Source of the DNA: an uncultured Bacteroidales bacterium
GTDB taxonomy: Bacteria > Bacteroidota > Bacteroidia > Bacteroidales > Bacteroidaceae
Assembly: GCA_902779085.1 (NCBI GenBank)
Contig: CACYZY010000008.1
Coordinates: forward strand, 46,201-110,200
Reading direction: 5' to 3'
DNA length: 64,000 nucleotides
The position numbers were made by a program, and so were the translations under genes. Shown here in pieces: positions 17,059 through 62,062 of this stretch (within the stretch, counting starts at the first letter, position 1; every line of letters begins with the position of its first letter). The notes beneath the pieces are model-generated. The model was not told where the DNA came from. It saw only the letters and a list, made by a program, of their open reading frames with translations, and ran no database searches.

Positions 17059-19236
17059 ATGAAAAAAGCGCACGAAATAGGATTCATCTTGTGGTTAGTC
17101 TTGCTAATTACTTTCTCACTAGAGGCTTTGGATGTCAGTGCCAAAAAGCATAATCCCATTGATGTACTGGCAGACAGCATTGTTCGTCTGACAGTAGGTC
17201 GTGCCAGGGATAGTGTAGGATTAGCTGATGAATACAATGCTCAACTATACATCAAAGGGCTGGTATATGTGCGTAAGAAGAATGTGTTTTACCATCAGAT
17301 ACCAGGCATGTTTCATGTCAGTAAAAATGGACAGCGTCGTTTTATTATCGAGACGATTAATCAGGTGCATTATTCCTCTCCGGACTTATTTGATCAACGT
17401 ACAGAAGCAGTGCTGGGCACTACCAACAGTTTCTTTGAGGGAGATGGCAGATTGTCCGATTTGTTTCATATCACTCCTTATCATCACATGTTGATGCAGG
17501 ATAAACTTATCTCTCCACTTTCCCCTAATGGTGACAAATATTATATATATATGCTCGATTCTGTCTTCTACGTAGGCAACATTCAACACTATAAAGTCGC
17601 TTTCAAACCACGAGTTGTTAGCTATCAGTTGGTTGAGGGCTATTTTATCATTACCAATGGTGCATGGAGCATCAGAGAAATGTGTTTTGAAGGCCGTAAC
17701 GAGATGTTGCGTTTCAAAAATACGATGACAATGGGTAGAGTAGGTACAGAAACAGAAATGTTGCCAATGAAATATAACTTAGAGGTTTATTTCCATTTTA
17801 TGGGCAACCGTATTGATGCTACCTATACAGGCCTGATGACCTATCATGACATAGAGCTCAAAGCGCCACTTCTTGTTTCAAAAGAACTGCGTCGCAAGGG
17901 TAAAGAAAAGTATGATCTCTCGCGCTATTATAATTTGGGTAGTGACGATAGTGCACCGACAAGAGATATAAAATTCTTCGAGAATCATCGTCCTACACCG
18001 CTGACGGATGACGAGTTGGATCTTTATACTGATTATATCAACGCACAGTTGGACAATCAACTTGACACAGTGAGGCAAAGTAAGGAGAAGCGCTCCCGTT
18101 TCTGGGGCAATGTAGGTGACGCTTTGGTGAGCCGAAGCCGTTTTTACGTGAAAGACGTGGGGAATTTCCGTCTCTCTCCTTTGTTTAATCCTCAACAGAT
18201 AGGATATAGCCACCGCAATGGCATATCATATAAAATGGATTTGCGCTATACCCGAAGAATGGTACATGACCGTGTGATTGAGATAACGCCACGCTTGGGA
18301 TATAATTTCAAGCATCGTGAGTTTTATTGGCTTGTAAGGGGCTATTTCGATTATTGGCCAGAAAAACGTGCCTCCTGGAATTTCGAAGTAGGTAATGGCG
18401 ACAAGGTTTATAATAATGAAGTGGTAAAAGACATAGAAACTATTATAGGTGATAAGGTTGATTTGTCGGATGTAAACCTGGAATATTTCAATCATACCTA
18501 TTTCAAACTATCACATAGTTGGGAGGTTTTCAATGGTTTCACCCTGGATCTAGGTCTTAACCTGCACCATAGAGCTGCTACTGGTAACCGCAACGAGAAT
18601 TACAATCGTACCTATAACAGTTTTGCACCAACGATGAGGCTTTCGTATACTCCAGGGCAATATTACTATATGGATGGTAAACGAAAAGTAAACCTGCATT
18701 CTTCTTACCCCACCTTAATATTTGAATGGGAAAAAGGGCTAGGGGGCATTTTAAAAAATTCTACTGTTTATGACCGTTTTGAGATAGACATTCAGGATGA
18801 TCTTCCTCTCGGGCTGCAACGCACATTATTCCTTCGATTTGGAGCTGGTGCCTTCGCGTATAAAGATCATTTGTATTTTATTGATTTCGAGAGATTCCGT
18901 AGGCATAACCTGCCCATGGGCTGGAGCGATGATATTGGTGGTGTATTCCAACTGCTTAACAATGATGTTTACAACTCTTCTACCCGATATTTGAGGTTCC
19001 ATGCCACTTATCAGGTTCCGTTCCTGATCATTCCACATGTTGCGAAATATTTGAAATATGTGATGAATGAGCGCATATATTTCAACACAGTATTCTTGCC
19101 TCATCAAAAACCCTTCTATGAAGTGGGTTATGGGTTAGGTACACATATTTTCGACTTTGGTCTCTTTATGTCGTTTGCACAGCAGAAAAAAAGTGAATTT
19201 GGATTCAAGATAACTTTTGAGCTATTTAATAGATAA
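17059..19236 (+). CDS. DUF5686-family outer-membrane beta-barrel-like protein
   Basis: Signal peptide, aromatic-rich beta-strand pattern, C-terminal YEVGYGLGTHIFDFG...FELF; family recalled from Bacteroidales proteins. Confidence 0.7.
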   Translation: MKKAHEIGFILWLVLLITFSLEALDVSAKKHNPIDVLADSIVRLTVGRARDSVGLADEYNAQLYIKGLVYVRKKNVFYHQIPGMFHVSKNGQRRFIIETINQVHYSSPDLFDQRTEAVLGTTNSFFEGDGRLSDLFHITPYHHMLMQDKLISPLSPNGDKYYIYMLDSVFYVGNIQHYKVAFKPRVVSYQLVEGYFIITNGAWSIREMCFEGRNEMLRFKNTMTMGRVGTETEMLPMKYNLEVYFHFMGNRIDATYTGLMTYHDIELKAPLLVSKELRRKGKEKYDLSRYYNLGSDDSAPTRDIKFFENHRPTPLTDDELDLYTDYINAQLDNQLDTVRQSKEKRSRFWGNVGDALVSRSRFYVKDVGNFRLSPLFNPQQIGYSHRNGISYKMDLRYTRRMVHDRVIEITPRLGYNFKHREFYWLVRGYFDYWPEKRASWNFEVGNGDKVYNNEVVKDIETIIGDKVDLSDVNLEYFNHTYFKLSHSWEVFNGFTLDLGLNLHHRAATGNRNENYNRTYNSFAPTMRLSYTPGQYYYMDGKRKVNLHSSYPTLIFEWEKGLGGILKNSTVYDRFEIDIQDDLPLGLQRTLFLRFGAGAFAYKDHLYFIDFERFRRHNLPMGWSDDIGGVFQLLNNDVYNSSTRYLRFHATYQVPFLIIPHVAKYLKYVMNERIYFNTVFLPHQKPFYEVGYGLGTHIFDFGLFMSFAQQKKSEFGFKITFELFNR

Positions 19237-19247
19237 ATTGATATATT

Positions 19248-21425
19248 ATGAAGAAAGTATTGTTAATATTGTTGGGTATTGGGTTCTTTGCTGCTTGCCA
19301 AACAAGAAGACAAACTGTAAATGAGCAGGAAACCTCTTACACACAGTATGTCGATCCATTTATTGGATCAGGCGGGCACGGACATGTATTTGTGGGAGCC
19401 AATGTCCCGTTCGGTTTCGTTCAGTTGGGCCCTTCCCAACTGACCCAAGGCTGGGACTGGTGCTCCGGTTATCACTATTCTGATTCAGTACTGGTGGGTT
19501 TCAGTCACCTTCATCTCAGTGGCACAGGTTGTGGTGATTTGGGTGATATAACTTTCCTGCCGCTGGCGAACAAAGAGCAGCGTACAGATAAGTTTACACA
19601 TGAACAGGAAATGGCAGAACCAGGCTACTATAGTGTACATACCCAGGAGGCGGATGTACAAGTAGAGCTAACGGCAACCACTCGTACTGGTTTCCATCGT
19701 TATTTCTATCCTGATAATAACGAGCAATTGTTATTGGTGAATCTTGATTATGGTATCAGTGGCGGCGATGTTACCCTTGGGGCAGCTATTCGTCAGCAAG
19801 GTGACCGAAGCATTGAGGGTTATCGTTTCTCAAAAGGGTGGGCTGTGAACCAACGTGTGTTTTTTGTGGCAGAGTTCAACAAACCTATCCGTAGTTTGGA
19901 ACAACCCGAAGACAACTTCAGCGTGTTGGCTTTCGAGGGTGGTAGTGAACCCCTGATGATGAAGGTGGGCATTTCTGCTGTGAGTGAGGCGAATGCTCGT
20001 CTGAATCTGCAGACTGAGAATCCAGGCTGGGATTTTGATGAGATATGCCTACAGGCCAATGCCTTGTGGGAAGAACAACTGAGCAAGATTAAGATTGATA
20101 CAGATGATGAAGTGGCCCGTACTATCTTCTATACCTCTCTATATCACACCATGATAGCTCCGTCTGTGTTCAACGATGTGAATGGTGACTATAGAGGTTC
20201 TGACGGTAAGGTGTATCAGCACGCCGATTTCATCAACTATACCACCTTCTCTTTGTGGGACACCTATCGTGCTGCCCATCCGTTGGCTACACTTATTCAT
20301 CCTGACAAACAGCGCGACTTTGCCCAGACTTTCCTGAAGATTTGCGAGCAGCAAGGGCGCTTGCCGGTTTGGCACCTGATGGGCAATGAAACCGATTGTA
20401 TGGTGGGTAATCCTGCCCTTCCTGTTTTAGCCGACATCGTTTTGAAAGGCTTCGATGTAGATGCTAAGGCAGCTTTGGAAGCGATGAAACAGACGGCAAT
20501 GGTAGATGGTCGTTCTATCGGCTTATTGAAGAAATATGGTTATATCCCATGGGATAAGGAACCTACCAACGAGACTGTAGCCAAGGCGATGGAATATGCA
20601 TTGGCAGACGATGCATTGGCCCGTGTGGCTAAGCAGTTGGGTGATGAGGAAGCCTATTCCTACTTCTATAATCGTGGCCAGTCATATAAGAAATACTTTG
20701 ATCCACAGACAGGTTTTGTGAGAGCCATTGATGTGAATGGCAAGTTCCGTGAGCCATTCGACCCCATCAAGGTGATCCATCGAGCTGATGATTATACAGA
20801 GGGCAATGCCTGGCAATACACCTGGTTGGTGCCTCACGATGTGAAAGGTCTTGTTGGTCTGTTTGGCAGTGAAGAAGCGTTTGTCACTAAACTGGATTCC
20901 CTGTTTGTGGTTGAAGGCGACTTGGGCGAGGAGGCATCACCAGATATCAGTGGTCTGATAGGACAATATGCACATGGCAACGAGCCCAGTCACCATACCA
21001 TTTATCTGTATAATTACGTTGGTCAGCCTTGGAAGACAGCTCAGCGCTTGCGTGAAGTGATGACTACCCTCTACAAAGCCGATCCTGATGGGTTGTGCGG
21101 CAACGAAGACGTAGGCCAGATGTCAGCTTGGTATATCCTCTCTTCTTTGGGATTGTATCAGGTAGAACCGGCAGGAGGTAAGTTCGTATTTGGTTCACCG
21201 TTGTTTGACAGTGCTGATGTGATGATGGGTGATAAGACATTAAGCATCATTGCCCACAATAACAGTGCTGAAAACATCTATATCCAGTCTGTTCGTTGGA
21301 ACGGGCAACCATACGATAAGTCGTATATCGATTTCAAGGATTTGCAGCAAGGTGGCACATTGGAGTTTGAGATGGGTGCCTATCCATCCGATACCTTTGG
21401 GGTAGCTCCAGAGAGCAGACCGTGA
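19248..21425 (+). CDS. GH92 alpha-1,2-mannosidase (lipoprotein)
   Basis: Lipobox FFAAC; VDPFIG, FSLWDTYRA, YTEGNAWQY, HGNEPSHH, GNEDVGQMSAW. Confidence 0.94.
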   Translation: MKKVLLILLGIGFFAACQTRRQTVNEQETSYTQYVDPFIGSGGHGHVFVGANVPFGFVQLGPSQLTQGWDWCSGYHYSDSVLVGFSHLHLSGTGCGDLGDITFLPLANKEQRTDKFTHEQEMAEPGYYSVHTQEADVQVELTATTRTGFHRYFYPDNNEQLLLVNLDYGISGGDVTLGAAIRQQGDRSIEGYRFSKGWAVNQRVFFVAEFNKPIRSLEQPEDNFSVLAFEGGSEPLMMKVGISAVSEANARLNLQTENPGWDFDEICLQANALWEEQLSKIKIDTDDEVARTIFYTSLYHTMIAPSVFNDVNGDYRGSDGKVYQHADFINYTTFSLWDTYRAAHPLATLIHPDKQRDFAQTFLKICEQQGRLPVWHLMGNETDCMVGNPALPVLADIVLKGFDVDAKAALEAMKQTAMVDGRSIGLLKKYGYIPWDKEPTNETVAKAMEYALADDALARVAKQLGDEEAYSYFYNRGQSYKKYFDPQTGFVRAIDVNGKFREPFDPIKVIHRADDYTEGNAWQYTWLVPHDVKGLVGLFGSEEAFVTKLDSLFVVEGDLGEEASPDISGLIGQYAHGNEPSHHTIYLYNYVGQPWKTAQRLREVMTTLYKADPDGLCGNEDVGQMSAWYILSSLGLYQVEPAGGKFVFGSPLFDSADVMMGDKTLSIIAHNNSAENIYIQSVRWNGQPYDKSYIDFKDLQQGGTLEFEMGAYPSDTFGVAPESRP

Positions 21426-21445
21426 TATGCTTCAGAAGCGAATTT

Positions 21446-21780
21446 AGTCTACTACGGGAGGACCGCCCGTCTTCCCGTAGTAGAGTGACCGTCCTCCCGT
21501 AGTAGAGCGTTATGCTATCCGTGGTTAATAAATAACCATCTTTGACTGCAGGGCTTCCTACTGGTAACCCCAGTATTTGCTATGGGGTGACTCTAATATC
21601 TTCTATGGGTTGCCACAATGCTTGCTATGGGTTGTCGCAAAGCCTTCTATCACTTGTCGCAATATCTCTTTTACCCCCATAGCAGATACTGCGACGAGTG
21701 ATGGAAGATACTGGAGAAGGCGATGGCAAGCCTTACCCTATGATATAGCAAGCCTTAGTCATAGAGATAGCAGCCGTTAA
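21446..21780. repeat. Degenerate 22-bp tandem/inverted repeat array (copy A)
   Basis: CTAY cores at 21558/21580/21603/21625/21647; inverted ATRG cores at 21679/21701/21723/21745/21767; CTACGGG/CCCGTAG at 21452/21474/21496. Confidence 0.85.
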
Positions 21781-21834
21781 TCATAGGGTTAGGGTACATT
21801 AGTCTATGATTTTCTGTTGCTATGAAAAATATAC

Positions 21835-22653
21835 TCAATCTTGAGTTGCTGTTCCTTCTACAACAGTAGGGGCTTCTTCTGGTGCTGCATCTTCGGCAAC
21901 ACTTGCAGGCTCTTCTTCTGAATGTACGGGATTCTCCTCTGTTATATCCTCAACACCGGCATTGAAATAATCTTCCAACTCTTGCTCGGCAGAATTGTTC
22001 TCATTCACAAGGTCACGGATAATCTTGCCATGCTCCATCAGGGCAATGCGTGAGCAGATATCTACCGTGTGGTTCAGGTTGTGAGAGGAAATGATGACGG
22101 TGGCGTTGTGCTCCTCGTGATACTTCTTCAGCAACTGCTTGATGACAGACTGTGAGGTAGGGTCGAGGAAGTTGAAAGGTTCATCCAATATTAGCAACTG
22201 GGGGTGATGGATCATGGCACTGATGATGCCCACCTTCTGCTTGTTGCCGGCAGAAAAGTTGCGGATGTACTTCTTCTGACCAATGACCTCACCATTCATG
22301 AAATGCTCAAATGGCTTGAGACGTTCGTCTATCTCCTGCTTGCTCAGTCCATAGACCTTGCCGATGAAATAAAAATACTCTTCTGGGGTGAGGTAGTCAA
22401 TCAGGAAACCATCGTCGATGAACTCTCCAGTAGTCTTCTTCCAGTCTTCACTCTTACTCACGTCAATACCGTCGATGGTAACATGGCCGTTGTCGGCCTG
22501 CAACAAATCCAGTATCAGGCGGAAAAGGGTGGTCTTGCCTGCTCCGTTGTTACCCACCAATCCCAGCATATCGCCTTGGTTAATCACATAGTTGTCTATA
22601 TCTACGGCTTTTGTCTCGCCAAACTGCTTCAACAAATTCTTTATCTCTATCAT
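21835..22653 (-). CDS. ABC transporter ATP-binding protein
   Basis: GNNGAGKTT, FSAGNKQK, LDEP, SSH motifs; acidic C-terminal tail. Confidence 0.93.
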   Translation of the reverse strand: MIEIKNLLKQFGETKAVDIDNYVINQGDMLGLVGNNGAGKTTLFRLILDLLQADNGHVTIDGIDVSKSEDWKKTTGEFIDDGFLIDYLTPEEYFYFIGKVYGLSKQEIDERLKPFEHFMNGEVIGQKKYIRNFSAGNKQKVGIISAMIHHPQLLILDEPFNFLDPTSQSVIKQLLKKYHEEHNATVIISSHNLNHTVDICSRIALMEHGKIIRDLVNENNSAEQELEDYFNAGVEDITEENPVHSEEEPASVAEDAAPEEAPTVVEGTATQD

Positions 22654-22659
22654 AATTCT

Positions 22660-24144
22660 TTATTTCTGTCTTGAGTCTCTAAATCCTTCCATATTGATAT
22701 ACCTGCGCTTCATAAAACGCTTGTACACATTCATAATCCAAAGATTGGAGGTAAGCATAAATGCGATGCCCACCGTCAGTACAATGATAGCCATCCACAT
22801 CTCTCCCATGATGCCTTTCAGTGCCAGTCCTAAAGTGATAGGTACACCGAACACCACCAGCGAGATGATGTTCTGCTTGCCCGAACCCATATAGTTGCGG
22901 TTGGTCATCTTTTCGTTCATCGGGATGGTGCGGTTGTTATAGACTGCCAGCTGGAAATAGCAGCAGAACACGGCACCACAGGTGAACAGCATCCATGCCA
23001 GACACGTCAGGAAGAGTACCTTGCCGGTGAATACGGCTGGCAACATGAACAGCAGGGGGATGAGCATGGCTACTGAATAGATGTAATACTTGGCTCTCAG
23101 CAATGTGTAGATACTTTCCTTACGGCTCATCAGTCCGTCGATATAGTTGCCCTCAAAGCTCATCAGCATACTGAGGAACATGGTGCCGAATATCACGAAA
23201 TTGTAGATGACGAGGAAGTCTTGGAACGAGCCTTCATACACATCAGAAAAGCTAATCAGCAGTGAGAATACAATCACCAATACGGAGATGGATATGAGTT
23301 GCTGACGACTCACCTTGTTGCGTGTCAGCATCTTCAGTTCCAATCGCATATACTCGCCAATCTCTCCAAAACGGTCGAAGAACTTGTATTCGCTGACATG
23401 TTTTACCTTCGTATCAGCCACCTTGTTCATCTCGTCATACATCAGTTTGCCAATCAGCCAACGGTTGATAAAGAACAATATAGCAATCAGGGCCAATAGT
23501 CCGATGAAGGTAAAGATATTGCCTTGTATCAGTCCTTCGCCTACCTCCAGGTGGAAATTATACAAAGGATCGAAATCAGCAAAAGCCAGACCAATAATAC
23601 AGCCCCAGAAAGCTACGGGCAACAGGAACCACCAGAACTTCTCACCTAGCAACAATTTGCAAAGCTGGTACCAGTAGTTGTTGGCTACAGCGATGAGCCA
23701 GATGCCAAAACAGTAGGTGATGACACCCCAAATGCCATAGTACTTGGTGACGGTAAGGATGGCGAATGGCACGAAGAAGAACAGCCAGAAGAGGTTGAAA
23801 CTGTTCAGTGCTGAGCGTACCAGCAACACATCGATTAGACTGCTGCGTTTGACGGGCAACAGTATGTAGGGCTTTATCTCCTGTGTAGGGAGCTTTTGAA
23901 AGCCGAATCGCATCAGGAAGTCGATAGCAAAGAAGATGAACAGGCCAGAGTTGATATAATGGTAGGCCTCTTTCGCTCCGTCATCCATGATGAAGGCGAA
24001 CATCACACCAAACAAGATGAGGTAGCACACGTAGAAAGCCGCTGCCAGGTAGATAAAGAACTGGGCTACCTGGCTCTGCTCATAAAACGGACTGCGCTTA
24101 TTGCTCAGCTTGTCGTGACGTCGTAATTCAAGAAATAAATTCAT
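22660..24144 (-). CDS. DUF5687-family multi-pass membrane protein (probable ABC permease)
   Basis: Many hydrophobic helices; MSFEGNYIDGLMSRKESI and GEYMRLELK motifs; directly upstream of the ABC ATPase. Confidence 0.72.
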   Translation of the reverse strand: MNLFLELRRHDKLSNKRSPFYEQSQVAQFFIYLAAAFYVCYLILFGVMFAFIMDDGAKEAYHYINSGLFIFFAIDFLMRFGFQKLPTQEIKPYILLPVKRSSLIDVLLVRSALNSFNLFWLFFFVPFAILTVTKYYGIWGVITYCFGIWLIAVANNYWYQLCKLLLGEKFWWFLLPVAFWGCIIGLAFADFDPLYNFHLEVGEGLIQGNIFTFIGLLALIAILFFINRWLIGKLMYDEMNKVADTKVKHVSEYKFFDRFGEIGEYMRLELKMLTRNKVSRQQLISISVLVIVFSLLISFSDVYEGSFQDFLVIYNFVIFGTMFLSMLMSFEGNYIDGLMSRKESIYTLLRAKYYIYSVAMLIPLLFMLPAVFTGKVLFLTCLAWMLFTCGAVFCCYFQLAVYNNRTIPMNEKMTNRNYMGSGKQNIISLVVFGVPITLGLALKGIMGEMWMAIIVLTVGIAFMLTSNLWIMNVYKRFMKRRYINMEGFRDSRQK

Positions 24145-61642: not shown

Positions 61643-61910
61643 TCTTTACTACGGGAGGAACGACGTTCTACTACGGGTAGAGCGCTTGTCCTCCCGTAGT
61701 AAGTAAATACCTATCTCTAACCGCAGTATTTCCTATAGGTAACGGCAGTATTGACTATGGGGTATAAGGAGTGCCTCCTATGGGTTGTCGCAGTATCTTC
61801 TACGGGTAGTCGGAAGGCTTCCTTTCTCCCATCTCAGTATCTCCTTTACCCCCATAGCAGATACTACGATGAGTGATAGCAGGTATTGCGGTGTCCCATA
61901 GCAAAGCTTC
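61643..61910. repeat. Degenerate 22-bp tandem/inverted repeat array (copy B)
   Basis: Cores at 61649/61671/61693, 61711/61733/61755/61778/61800/61822/61844, inverted at 61854/61876/61898; 45/53 identity to copy A across the centre. Confidence 0.85.
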
Positions 61911-62062
61911 GGTTTGAAGATAGTTTTGTATTTTTATCTAATGCCACTCCTTTATGGATATAAGACATAAAAATAATTAATAGATAAAACAATTAAGTAA
62001 AAAATTAGTACTTTTGAAACTCAAATTTAACAAGTATACTTTTTATATTGTCATATACAATT

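Follow-up and report, generated by a model that had tools for sequence, protein, structure and literature searches.

A modular intergenic repeat family built of 22-bp units in a few related Bacteroidales species

What occupies the gap between two convergent genes in the genome of an uncultured Bacteroidales bacterium (GenBank assembly GCA_902779085.1), and how are such sequences copied? The locus lies in a stretch of 64,000 nucleotides (the window; contig CACYZY010000008.1, positions 46,201 to 110,200), in which the open reading frames (ORFs) 19248..21425 (+) and 21835..22653 (-), assigned by Pfam to a GH92 glycosidase and an ABC-transporter ATPase, are separated by 409 bp (21426-21834). An earlier annotation, made from the letters alone and here called the original prediction, had described this gap as a palindromic array of degenerate 22-bp units: possibly a phased protein-binding scaffold, a hairpin-forming element akin to repetitive extragenic palindromic (REP) sequences and bacterial interspersed mosaic elements (BIMEs), or a non-autonomous mobile element. 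It had the convergent GH92 and ABC flanks right and underestimated the gap at ~335 bp; the repeat-bearing DNA runs from 21448 to ~21811, somewhat past the end given at the time. Our analysis points to one copy of a lineage-restricted, non-coding, modular interspersed repeat that is itself non-autonomous and is copied by a putative trans-acting activity, other than a REP-associated tyrosine transposase (RAYT), reading the 22-bp units ("bricks") as duplex DNA. We give this explanation as a whole a probability of roughly 0.55.

The 22-bp periodicity was confirmed by self-comparison, by shuffling, and by Tandem Repeats Finder. At a lag of 22, the self-identity of the gap equals 0.483, compared to 0.251±0.022 for shuffled sequence, and 0 of 5000 shuffles scored as high. 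Across lags 1 to 69, identity is otherwise raised only at 44 and 66, and apart from lag 22 none exceeds 0.35 (lag 44). Tandem Repeats Finder reports a period of 22 at 21600-21662 and 21722-21786. The predicted forward cores (21580, 21603, 21625, and 21647) and reverse cores (21679, 21701, 21723, 21745, and 21767) coincide with repeat families D1 to D5 and I2 to I5, while the switch in orientation expected at ~21675 is found as a dyad axis between 21675 and 21676. As had been stated, the array is neither a coding repeat nor a clustered regularly interspaced short palindromic repeat (CRISPR) array: the units abut without spacers, 22 is not a multiple of 3, the spacing equals the unit length (22 nt), and the orientation inverts at the center.

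The gap holds one composite copy, consisting of a module A triplet, a linker, and a palindromic module B array. Module A (21448..21506) has three 22-bp units, one CTACTACGGGAGGA and two inverted TCCTCCCGTAGTAG (inverted repeats I1 and I4, direct repeat D4), and could form alternative hairpins, with unit 1 pairing with either unit 2 or unit 3. This triplet was foreseen in the original prediction; it is present with 22-nt spacing (21449, ~21471, and ~21493), about 3 nt away from the coordinates first given. The linker (21507..21570) holds a copy-specific extra segment that includes a small AT-rich hairpin, GGTTAATAAATAACC, at 21523-21537; in an alignment of the four long copies, ~27 nt are unique to this copy. 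The linker is covered by just one other copy in the genome. The left arm of module B (21571..21658, + strand) comprises four forward bricks starting at 21571, 21593, 21615, and 21637, which are marked by profile hits, phase-defined units, and direct repeats D1 to D3. Their type is GCAGTATCTNCTAT followed by GGGTYGTC or CACYYGTC. The core (21659..21692), on which the dyad axis is centered, is an imperfect 14-6-14 palindrome, GCAATATCTCTTTT-ACCCCC-ATAGCAGATACTGC. In the right arm (21693..21811, - strand), reverse bricks start at 21693, 21715, 21737, 21759, and 21781. The inner two are of the core type and the outer ones of the CATAGGGTTAG/CCCTATGA type, one or the other of which also forms the outer bricks of the long copies in general, and likeness to other copies stops near ...CATTAGTCTATGA.

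Within a brick, positions 1 to 14 hold most of the information (G-C-A-R-T-A-T-C-T-N-C-T-A-T) and include a dyad-symmetric 11-mer, GCAG-TAT-CTGC. Positions 15 to 18 form a discrete two-state segment, GGGT/GGGG or CACC/ACCC, with the strongest mutual information in the unit. The foot of the module A hairpin carries GTAG/CTAC, which we take to resemble the REP tetranucleotide. The core of module A (21449-21462 in this copy, and likewise in all module A units) also contains CTACGGGAGG, equal to 10 bases of the universally conserved 16S rRNA stretch of primer 341F (CCTACGGGAGGCAGCAG), probably a coincidence.

This organization recurs throughout the Prevotella-like rumen genome of origin (G000), a 2.6-Mb draft in 39 contigs that is 90% complete. 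A BLAST search of the gap against this genome returned 105 matches at ~40 loci, including three near-full-length copies of the palindromic part with 78 to 79% identity (C1:180458-180696, C1:74697-74937, and C6:56408-56646). The four long copies, including that of the GH92/ABC gap, keep the order of brick types across ~240 bp, which argues that whole arrays and not just single bricks have been copied. In a genome scan that was blind to sequence, 45 scan windows reached a lag-22 identity of at least 0.5, compared to 0 to 15 for each of the other lags between 15 and 30. A 22-column profile, GCAGTATCTGCTATGGGTCGTT, with which the consensus of the original prediction (CAGTATCTTCTATGGGTTGTCG) agrees, found several hundred more units than in the reversed-genome control. 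Neighboring hits on the same strand are spaced by 22 nt in 109 cases, 23 nt in 15, 44 nt in 14, and 66 nt in 7, whereas in the control a series at 22 nt is lacking and just two stray spacings turned up, one of 51 nt and one of 66 nt.

Clustering of the profile hits gave 39 arrays totaling 5.8 kb, with elements of 150 to 400 bp and 2 to 6 bricks per arm. All bricks point inward (>>>…<<<) in 34 of the 39 arrays and the opposite layout (<<<>>>) occurs in none; the remaining five contain one or two stray hits or have a single orientation. A 34-bp core, GCAGTATCTCCTAT-ACCCCC-ATAGGAGATACTGC, lies at the center of 29 arrays in identical layout, the two central bricks being offset by exactly 12 nt and jointly forming CGCAGTATCTCCTAT-ACCCCC-ATAGGAGATACTGCG. 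Non-core brick types (CTACTACGGGAGG and CATAGGGTTAG) sit at the periphery in the same 22-bp register, and the similarity between copies peaks at the core and fades outwards. Genome-wide, 11 clusters of the CTACTACGGGAGG module (module A) keep a spacing of exactly 22 nt, and one further copy is degenerate. Nine of the clusters have three units (><< or >><), one has four, and one consists of six direct units. Seven module A copies adjoin a module B array and five are free-standing, bringing the genome-wide count to 39 arrays and 5 free-standing module A copies. Among 50 loci from relatives, most share the same architecture and a few have one stray hit. Since ~40 copies are scattered through the genome and the family is present in a few close relatives, this is an interspersed repeat family and not a local oddity. 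Both points on which the original prediction had staked itself, copies beyond the locus and a periodicity significantly above that of shuffled sequence, clearly held.

Comparison with related genomes shows that the element is present at some orthologous sites and absent from others. At the GH92/ABC locus, the gap is filled in the closest relative, G012 (ABC protein 92% identical), in which the contig ends inside the element. It is empty in G019 (87% identical), where the gene order is kept and the ~35 nt from one stop codon to the other contain no more than a GGGGGC-TTTC-GCCCCC hairpin. In seven carriers, we also looked for the flanks of another 16 arrays. Three more loci are filled in G000 and empty in three relatives each, and two of these are tight operon junctions, measuring 12 to 15 nt in the relatives versus 350 to 470 nt in G000. 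Other arrays are retained at orthologous sites in G094 and G012, with an identity similar to that of the coding flanks. At one orthologous site, the species differ in the orientation of the 6-nt loop (ACCCCC versus GGGGT), as is expected if the inverted arms recombine. The copies in G000 are old, the best pair being 91% identical and the median best match 81%. In G010, copies that are 97 to 100% identical occur at seven contig ends, joined to another module of 22-bp units (GTAAT..ATTAC), and a recent burst of copying appears to have taken place there. The dispersal over 39 arrays, the filled and empty orthologous sites, and the near-identical G010 copies bear out the suggestion of a non-autonomous, dispersed or mobile element.

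The family has a narrow host range. The core pattern has 29 occurrences in G000; for eight further species of the genus, the counts are 25, 19, 12, 10, 8, 6, 4, and 1. All carrier species have small genomes, and they represent ~9 of the 250 species of the genus; the other ~240 contain the pattern 0 to 1 times, which equals chance level. None of 400 genomes, drawn from 236 genera across the order, contains it. Named genome records with the family are metagenome-assembled genomes (MAGs) from the rumen of goat, yak, and cattle, labeled Bacteroidaceae or Prevotellaceae, and the isolate Prevotella sp. tf2-5, a cultured strain that carries a single copy. No match was found in 72,556 plasmids, 50,697 phage records, and 2.9 million viral contigs. 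A literature search retrieved no account of an element of this kind from Prevotella or from Bacteroidales of the rumen, and the repeat family is apparently undescribed so far.

Placement relative to genes was assessed with crude, ORF-based gene calls (91% coding). Nearly all arrays (37/39) are intergenic (p=4e-36). Convergent gaps, which make up 286 of 2054 gaps genome-wide (14%), hold 20 of the 39 arrays, a 3.7-fold enrichment (p=3.5e-8); divergent gaps account for 6 arrays and gaps between co-directional genes for 13. The median distance from an array to the next ORF is 112 nt. In co-directional gaps with core-containing arrays, neither the C-rich nor the G-rich loop strand is preferred on the sense strand (5 versus 3). 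The Bacteroidetes -7 motif (TAnnTTTG) was found 0 times on both strands of 5.76 kb of arrays, versus 4.0 per kb of intergenic DNA; with no such motifs and nothing above shuffle level, a promoter role was rejected. A terminator role was likewise rejected, as hairpins with U-tracts are not more frequent in the arrays than expected by chance.

Whether the bricks are maintained for their sequence or for their ability to pair can be judged from the variation among copies. A comparison of orthologous arrays shows fewer changes at high-information than at low-information positions of the brick, both for phase-defined units (14.1% versus 21.4%, p=0.008) and for score-selected units (16.9% versus 25.0%, p=2.6e-4). 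Variable stem positions show no covariation and pair less often than column frequencies predict, and pairing is confined to the invariant part of the core stem. Among 77 elements from at least six genomes, the two arms of an element are less complementary to each other than arms taken from different copies (0/5000 permutations in three of four distance bins and 3/5000 in the fourth), and the fold of an element's own arms has a mean of -53.5 kcal/mol, compared to -62.1 for left/right chimeras (p=6e-10). Nothing suggests that a stable hairpin is selected for, and long palindromes that are perfect seem to be disfavored. At one locus, moreover, six module A units in direct tandem, for which a hairpin is impossible, keep exact 22-nt phasing. 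This direct-tandem phasing, together with the lack of strand polarity and the dyad within the bricks, favors a protein that reads duplex DNA over a selected hairpin, and we infer that the bricks are recognized as duplex DNA by a putative sequence-specific protein. From the sequences at hand, the phased protein-binding scaffold would be the best fit among the three readings of the original prediction, because of the exact phasing in inverted and direct arrays, the conservation at the sequence level, and the absence of strand bias.

In the explanation that we favor, a non-autonomous element would be copied or gene-converted by a trans-acting, non-RAYT activity that recognizes the bricks in double-stranded form. 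With a pitch of 22 bp, or roughly two helical turns, one dyad site after another would face almost the same side of the helix, which would allow cooperative binding. Slippage or unequal exchange would add or remove whole bricks and so alter arm length, and if the inverted arms recombined, the loop and inner segments would be turned around. Survival of the copies would be expected chiefly in 3' gaps, where they are presumably harmless. Transcripts of the element would also form a long imperfect hairpin, a property that the evidence does not mark out as the selected one.

Several points weigh against it. A unit of 22 bp corresponds to 2.1 turns, so that the phasing drifts by ~34° per brick. Gene conversion among the copies, instead of selection, could explain why motif positions change less. 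The p-values for the reduced complementarity of arms are optimistic because the elements are related by descent, even though the direction of the effect is clear. No recognizable terminal inverted repeat (TIR) or target-site duplication (TSD) was found at the filled/empty junctions of four loci, where the species are 75 to 95% identical, so that short duplications might be obscured; additional DNA outside the repeat is also present at the filled sites. The ends of the copies are fuzzy and the core is best conserved, which is the opposite of a classical MITE (miniature inverted-repeat transposable element), whose termini are best conserved. Among array flanks and genome repeats, we detected no mobilizing or binding protein, no recurrent neighbor gene, and no partner resembling an insertion sequence (IS). 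Finally, activity in G000 may be extinct, given the age of its copies.

The rival that survives best is an RNA role like that of Escherichia coli REP/BIME sequences, which we nevertheless consider rather unlikely. Here, the element would be selected for its long imperfect hairpin, which would stop 3'-to-5' exonucleases in the 3' untranslated region of the convergent genes or aid termination there. Both strands indeed fold far better than shuffled sequences (z = -8.2 and -6.9), and half of the arrays lie between convergent genes. The hairpin at the empty G019 site is GC-rich and resembles a bidirectional terminator, so that the element sits at the expected terminator position, and the filled gap has no remaining canonical terminator. 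However, compensatory covariation is lacking and polymorphic stem positions are under-paired, arms of the same element give a fold 8.5 kcal/mol worse than chimeric ones, and the core hairpin is not followed by a U-tract. The loop shows no strand bias in co-directional contexts, the direct-tandem module A array cannot form a hairpin, and arrays also occur in six divergent (promoter) gaps and split tight operon junctions. The BIME/REP-like reading of the original prediction stands only by analogy of organization, not with regard to a RAYT in G000 or a selected hairpin pairing, for neither of which a sign was found.

Improbable as well, and a little more so, is a domesticated chromosomal scaffold, in which the bricks would be phased sites for a nucleoid-associated protein, a topoisomerase, or a condensin loader at convergent unit ends, as BIMEs bind IHF and gyrase. 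The sequence constraint and the dyad bricks at a pitch of about two turns support this possibility as much as the explanation that we favor, ~40 sites are spread across all large contigs, and orthologous arrays are kept about as well as coding flanks. On the other hand, occurrence in only ~9 of 250 species of the genus means that such a housekeeping role would have to be of very recent origin. In sister species, many of the orthologous sites lack the element and show no substitute in its place, copy number ranges from 1 to 29 among carriers, and no candidate protein co-occurs with the arrays.

Local minisatellites, arising by slipped-strand expansion and inversion in place, with the likeness between loci due to convergence or chance, are very improbable. 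They would account for the variation in brick number per arm (2 to 6), for the fuzzy array ends, and for the presence of unrelated 22-bp tandem repeats elsewhere in the genome (e.g., on C19 and C20). The shared core and brick order already contradict them: a 34-bp core with an identical 6-nt loop at 29 loci and an order of brick types common to four copies over 240 bp, in addition to copies that are 97 to 100% identical at different G010 loci and the lack of any such pattern in the reversed-genome control. Least probable of all is the remnant of a plasmid or phage replication or partition system (iterons or a centromere-like array) integrated many times: although iterons and partition sites are by analogy phased direct or inverted repeats of ~20 bp, as the original prediction had noted for plasmid iterons, the plasmid, phage, and viral collections contain no match, and the arrays are flanked by ordinary chromosomal genes without rep/par or other replication or partition genes.

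A partner protein for the activity that we propose was sought in the carrier genomes. The RAYT/Y1 family (PF01797), a search for which had been suggested, has no match in the 90%-complete G000, whereas control genomes do score. Among eight carriers, PF01797 exceeds the cut-off only in G010 and G111. The G010 gene (L202, 1402-1857) is flanked by GC-rich hairpins, GCCCTGAAAGGGC / CCCAGGGC..GCCCTGGG, and not by 22-bp bricks. RAYT was therefore rejected as the partner, being absent from G000 and belonging to another REP family in G010. A gene for a four-helix-bundle protein (PF05635) is absent from G000 and G106 and is single-copy and not flanked by bricks in the other carriers; some PF05635 loci in carriers show a 7-nt periodicity instead. 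The genome has few long repeats, and their products (primase-like, IstB-like, HU-like, and surface proteins) are not obvious transposases. A search against Rfam 15 gave two sub-threshold look-alikes of miRNA precursors only (20 bits versus gathering thresholds of 100 to 110), consistent with generic hairpins. Regarding the G010 RAYT gene itself, the surrounding locus (L202 on C66, 1100-2010) comprises a 151-aa Y1 (IS200/RAYT-like) gene with GC-rich hairpins on both sides (GCCCTGAAAGGGC, CCCAGGGCnnnGCCCTGGG, and GCCCCTTCGGGGC), and looks like a classical REP-RAYT unit, unrelated to the bricks, in a relative of rumen Prevotella.

In organization, the family is closest to BrickBuilt above all, and also to BIMEs and BOX elements, and the tests that define each of these came out negative. 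BrickBuilt was described in another member of the Bacteroidales, Porphyromonas gingivalis, as an always intergenic element with 19 copies in strain ATCC 33277, spacer-less tandem units of 23 nt, flanking non-repeat modules, and predicted long stem-loops; it is species-restricted and has no transposase inside (Klein et al. 2015, PMC4596501). Its direct units read AGAYCATARTATCCTCTCRTRTG, its leader and tail have IS5-type terminal inverted repeats, and it carries promoters (PMC4596501). Both families share the order, the intergenic location, a near-equal unit length, the lack of spacers, and a narrow host range. They differ in that the family presented here has 22-nt units inverted about a core instead of 23-nt direct units, with no IS-type TIR seen and no -7 promoter motifs. 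Homology between the units was rejected: the best cyclic ungapped match gave p=0.96 for brick A and p=0.29 for brick B, and a 12/15 match found by eye does not hold against shuffles.

REP, BIME, and REPIN sequences with RAYTs, known from enterobacteria and Pseudomonas, are high-copy extragenic imperfect palindromes in regularly spaced mosaics, often at the 3' ends of genes (PMC2817692). The brick arrays are similarly extragenic, multi-copy, regularly spaced, and often located between gene 3' ends. However, the bricks converge on a single center where REPs alternate, their pairing is not conserved, and G000 has no RAYT. BOX elements of Streptococcus pneumoniae, with ~100 intergenic copies of the form boxA-(boxB)n-boxC, encode no protein, and their mobilizer is not known; the boxB units are direct and 45 bp long, and the terminal modules A and C pair. 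Like the brick family, they are modular and interspersed, vary in how many internal units they have, and lack an encoded protein, whereas the phylum is different, the sequences are unrelated, and the units here are 22 bp and inverted. The binding sites of Tn7 TnsB and Mu MuA (~22 bp) form inverted arrays at the termini of a gene-carrying transposon, with conserved TGT...ACA tips. The arrays of ~22-bp units in inverted orientation on two sides are shared with these systems, but the arms in our family abut with nothing between them, and the center is most conserved, not the tips. No Tn7- or Mu-like genes were noticed among array flanks or genome repeats, in which no search was aimed at those transposases. 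As in MITEs, the element is small, non-coding, multi-copy, and insertion-polymorphic, and the IS-type TIRs and TSDs of such elements were not found.

REP, BIME, BOX, and BrickBuilt repeats shape transcription ends, genome rearrangement, and assembly quality, and outside the Proteobacteria the copying enzyme and function are not known for most such repeats. The family presented here is a clean case, with a sharp core, strict 22-bp phasing, a narrow host clade, one cultured carrier, and the apparent burst in G010. Conservation of sequence with avoidance of pairing points to a DNA-binding protein that could be isolated. The elements also break assemblies of rumen Prevotella MAGs, as contigs of G010 and G012 end inside them, and brick arrays could serve as strain markers. 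If the brick length of 22 to 23 bp in common with BrickBuilt reflects one mechanism, this would hint at an undescribed Bacteroidales mobilization system. Speculatively, and we regard this as doubtful, a hitherto unrecognized "phased-brick" class in the Bacteroidales could be defined by a putative trans-acting protein that measures about two turns (22 to 23 bp, as in BrickBuilt) and that assembles or copies arrays of dyad sites around a loxP/dif-like 14-6-14 core, by a two-state GGGT/ACCC flip tetramer in each brick, and by selection against perfect self-complementarity of the copies.

The window contains a second composite copy at 61644..61915, with module A at 61646-61702, module B at 61723-61889, and the core at ~61834-61867. 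It corresponds to locus G000:C8:107844-108088 and lies between co-directional genes. In the GH92/ABC gap, an ORF of 67 aa (21577..21780) falls wholly inside the 22-bp-periodic repeat. Elsewhere in the genome, a different short repeat, CAGAACAAAATAAACTTGTTTATTTTTTATGTTGAGGGCCCCCTATCTTATTTAAAGATAATGC, is present 5 to 7 times, and at G000:C2:242360-242425 it abuts a brick array inserted in an operon junction. Unrelated tandem repeats with a 22-bp period occur at C19:283-436, C20:2690-2755, C2:192041-192110, and C2:229868-229933, for example AAAAGGGAACAAGCTATATCAA in seven copies, GAACCTAGGCGCTTGCTAGGCG in three copies, and CTTTTACTAGAACTAAGCCGTC; more than one sequence family thus contributes to the surplus of 22-bp periodicity in this genome. 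The small contigs with a lag-22 signal (C19, C20, and C26) had been considered as autonomous copies and were rejected, as they contain unrelated 22-bp tandem repeats.

Within the first ~310 nt of G010 locus L194 (C65), an array is cut at ...GGGTGATG, followed by TGACTTATACTG... and an ORF beginning with MRKSHQKYNEEEKLNYLRLYHESGMGK. This looks like the insertion of an IS3-family element into the array, and the contig begins within it. The identity of orthologous flanks between G000 and G012 varies from ~74% to 99% depending on the locus, which points to interspecies recombination or a mixed MAG. In the neighborhood of the gap, a DUF5686 gene (17059-19236) lies directly upstream of the GH92 gene, and the minus strand past the ABC ATPase (22660-24144) encodes DUF5687 and M16 peptidase proteins, giving a cluster of M16 peptidase, DUF5687, and ABC ATPase.

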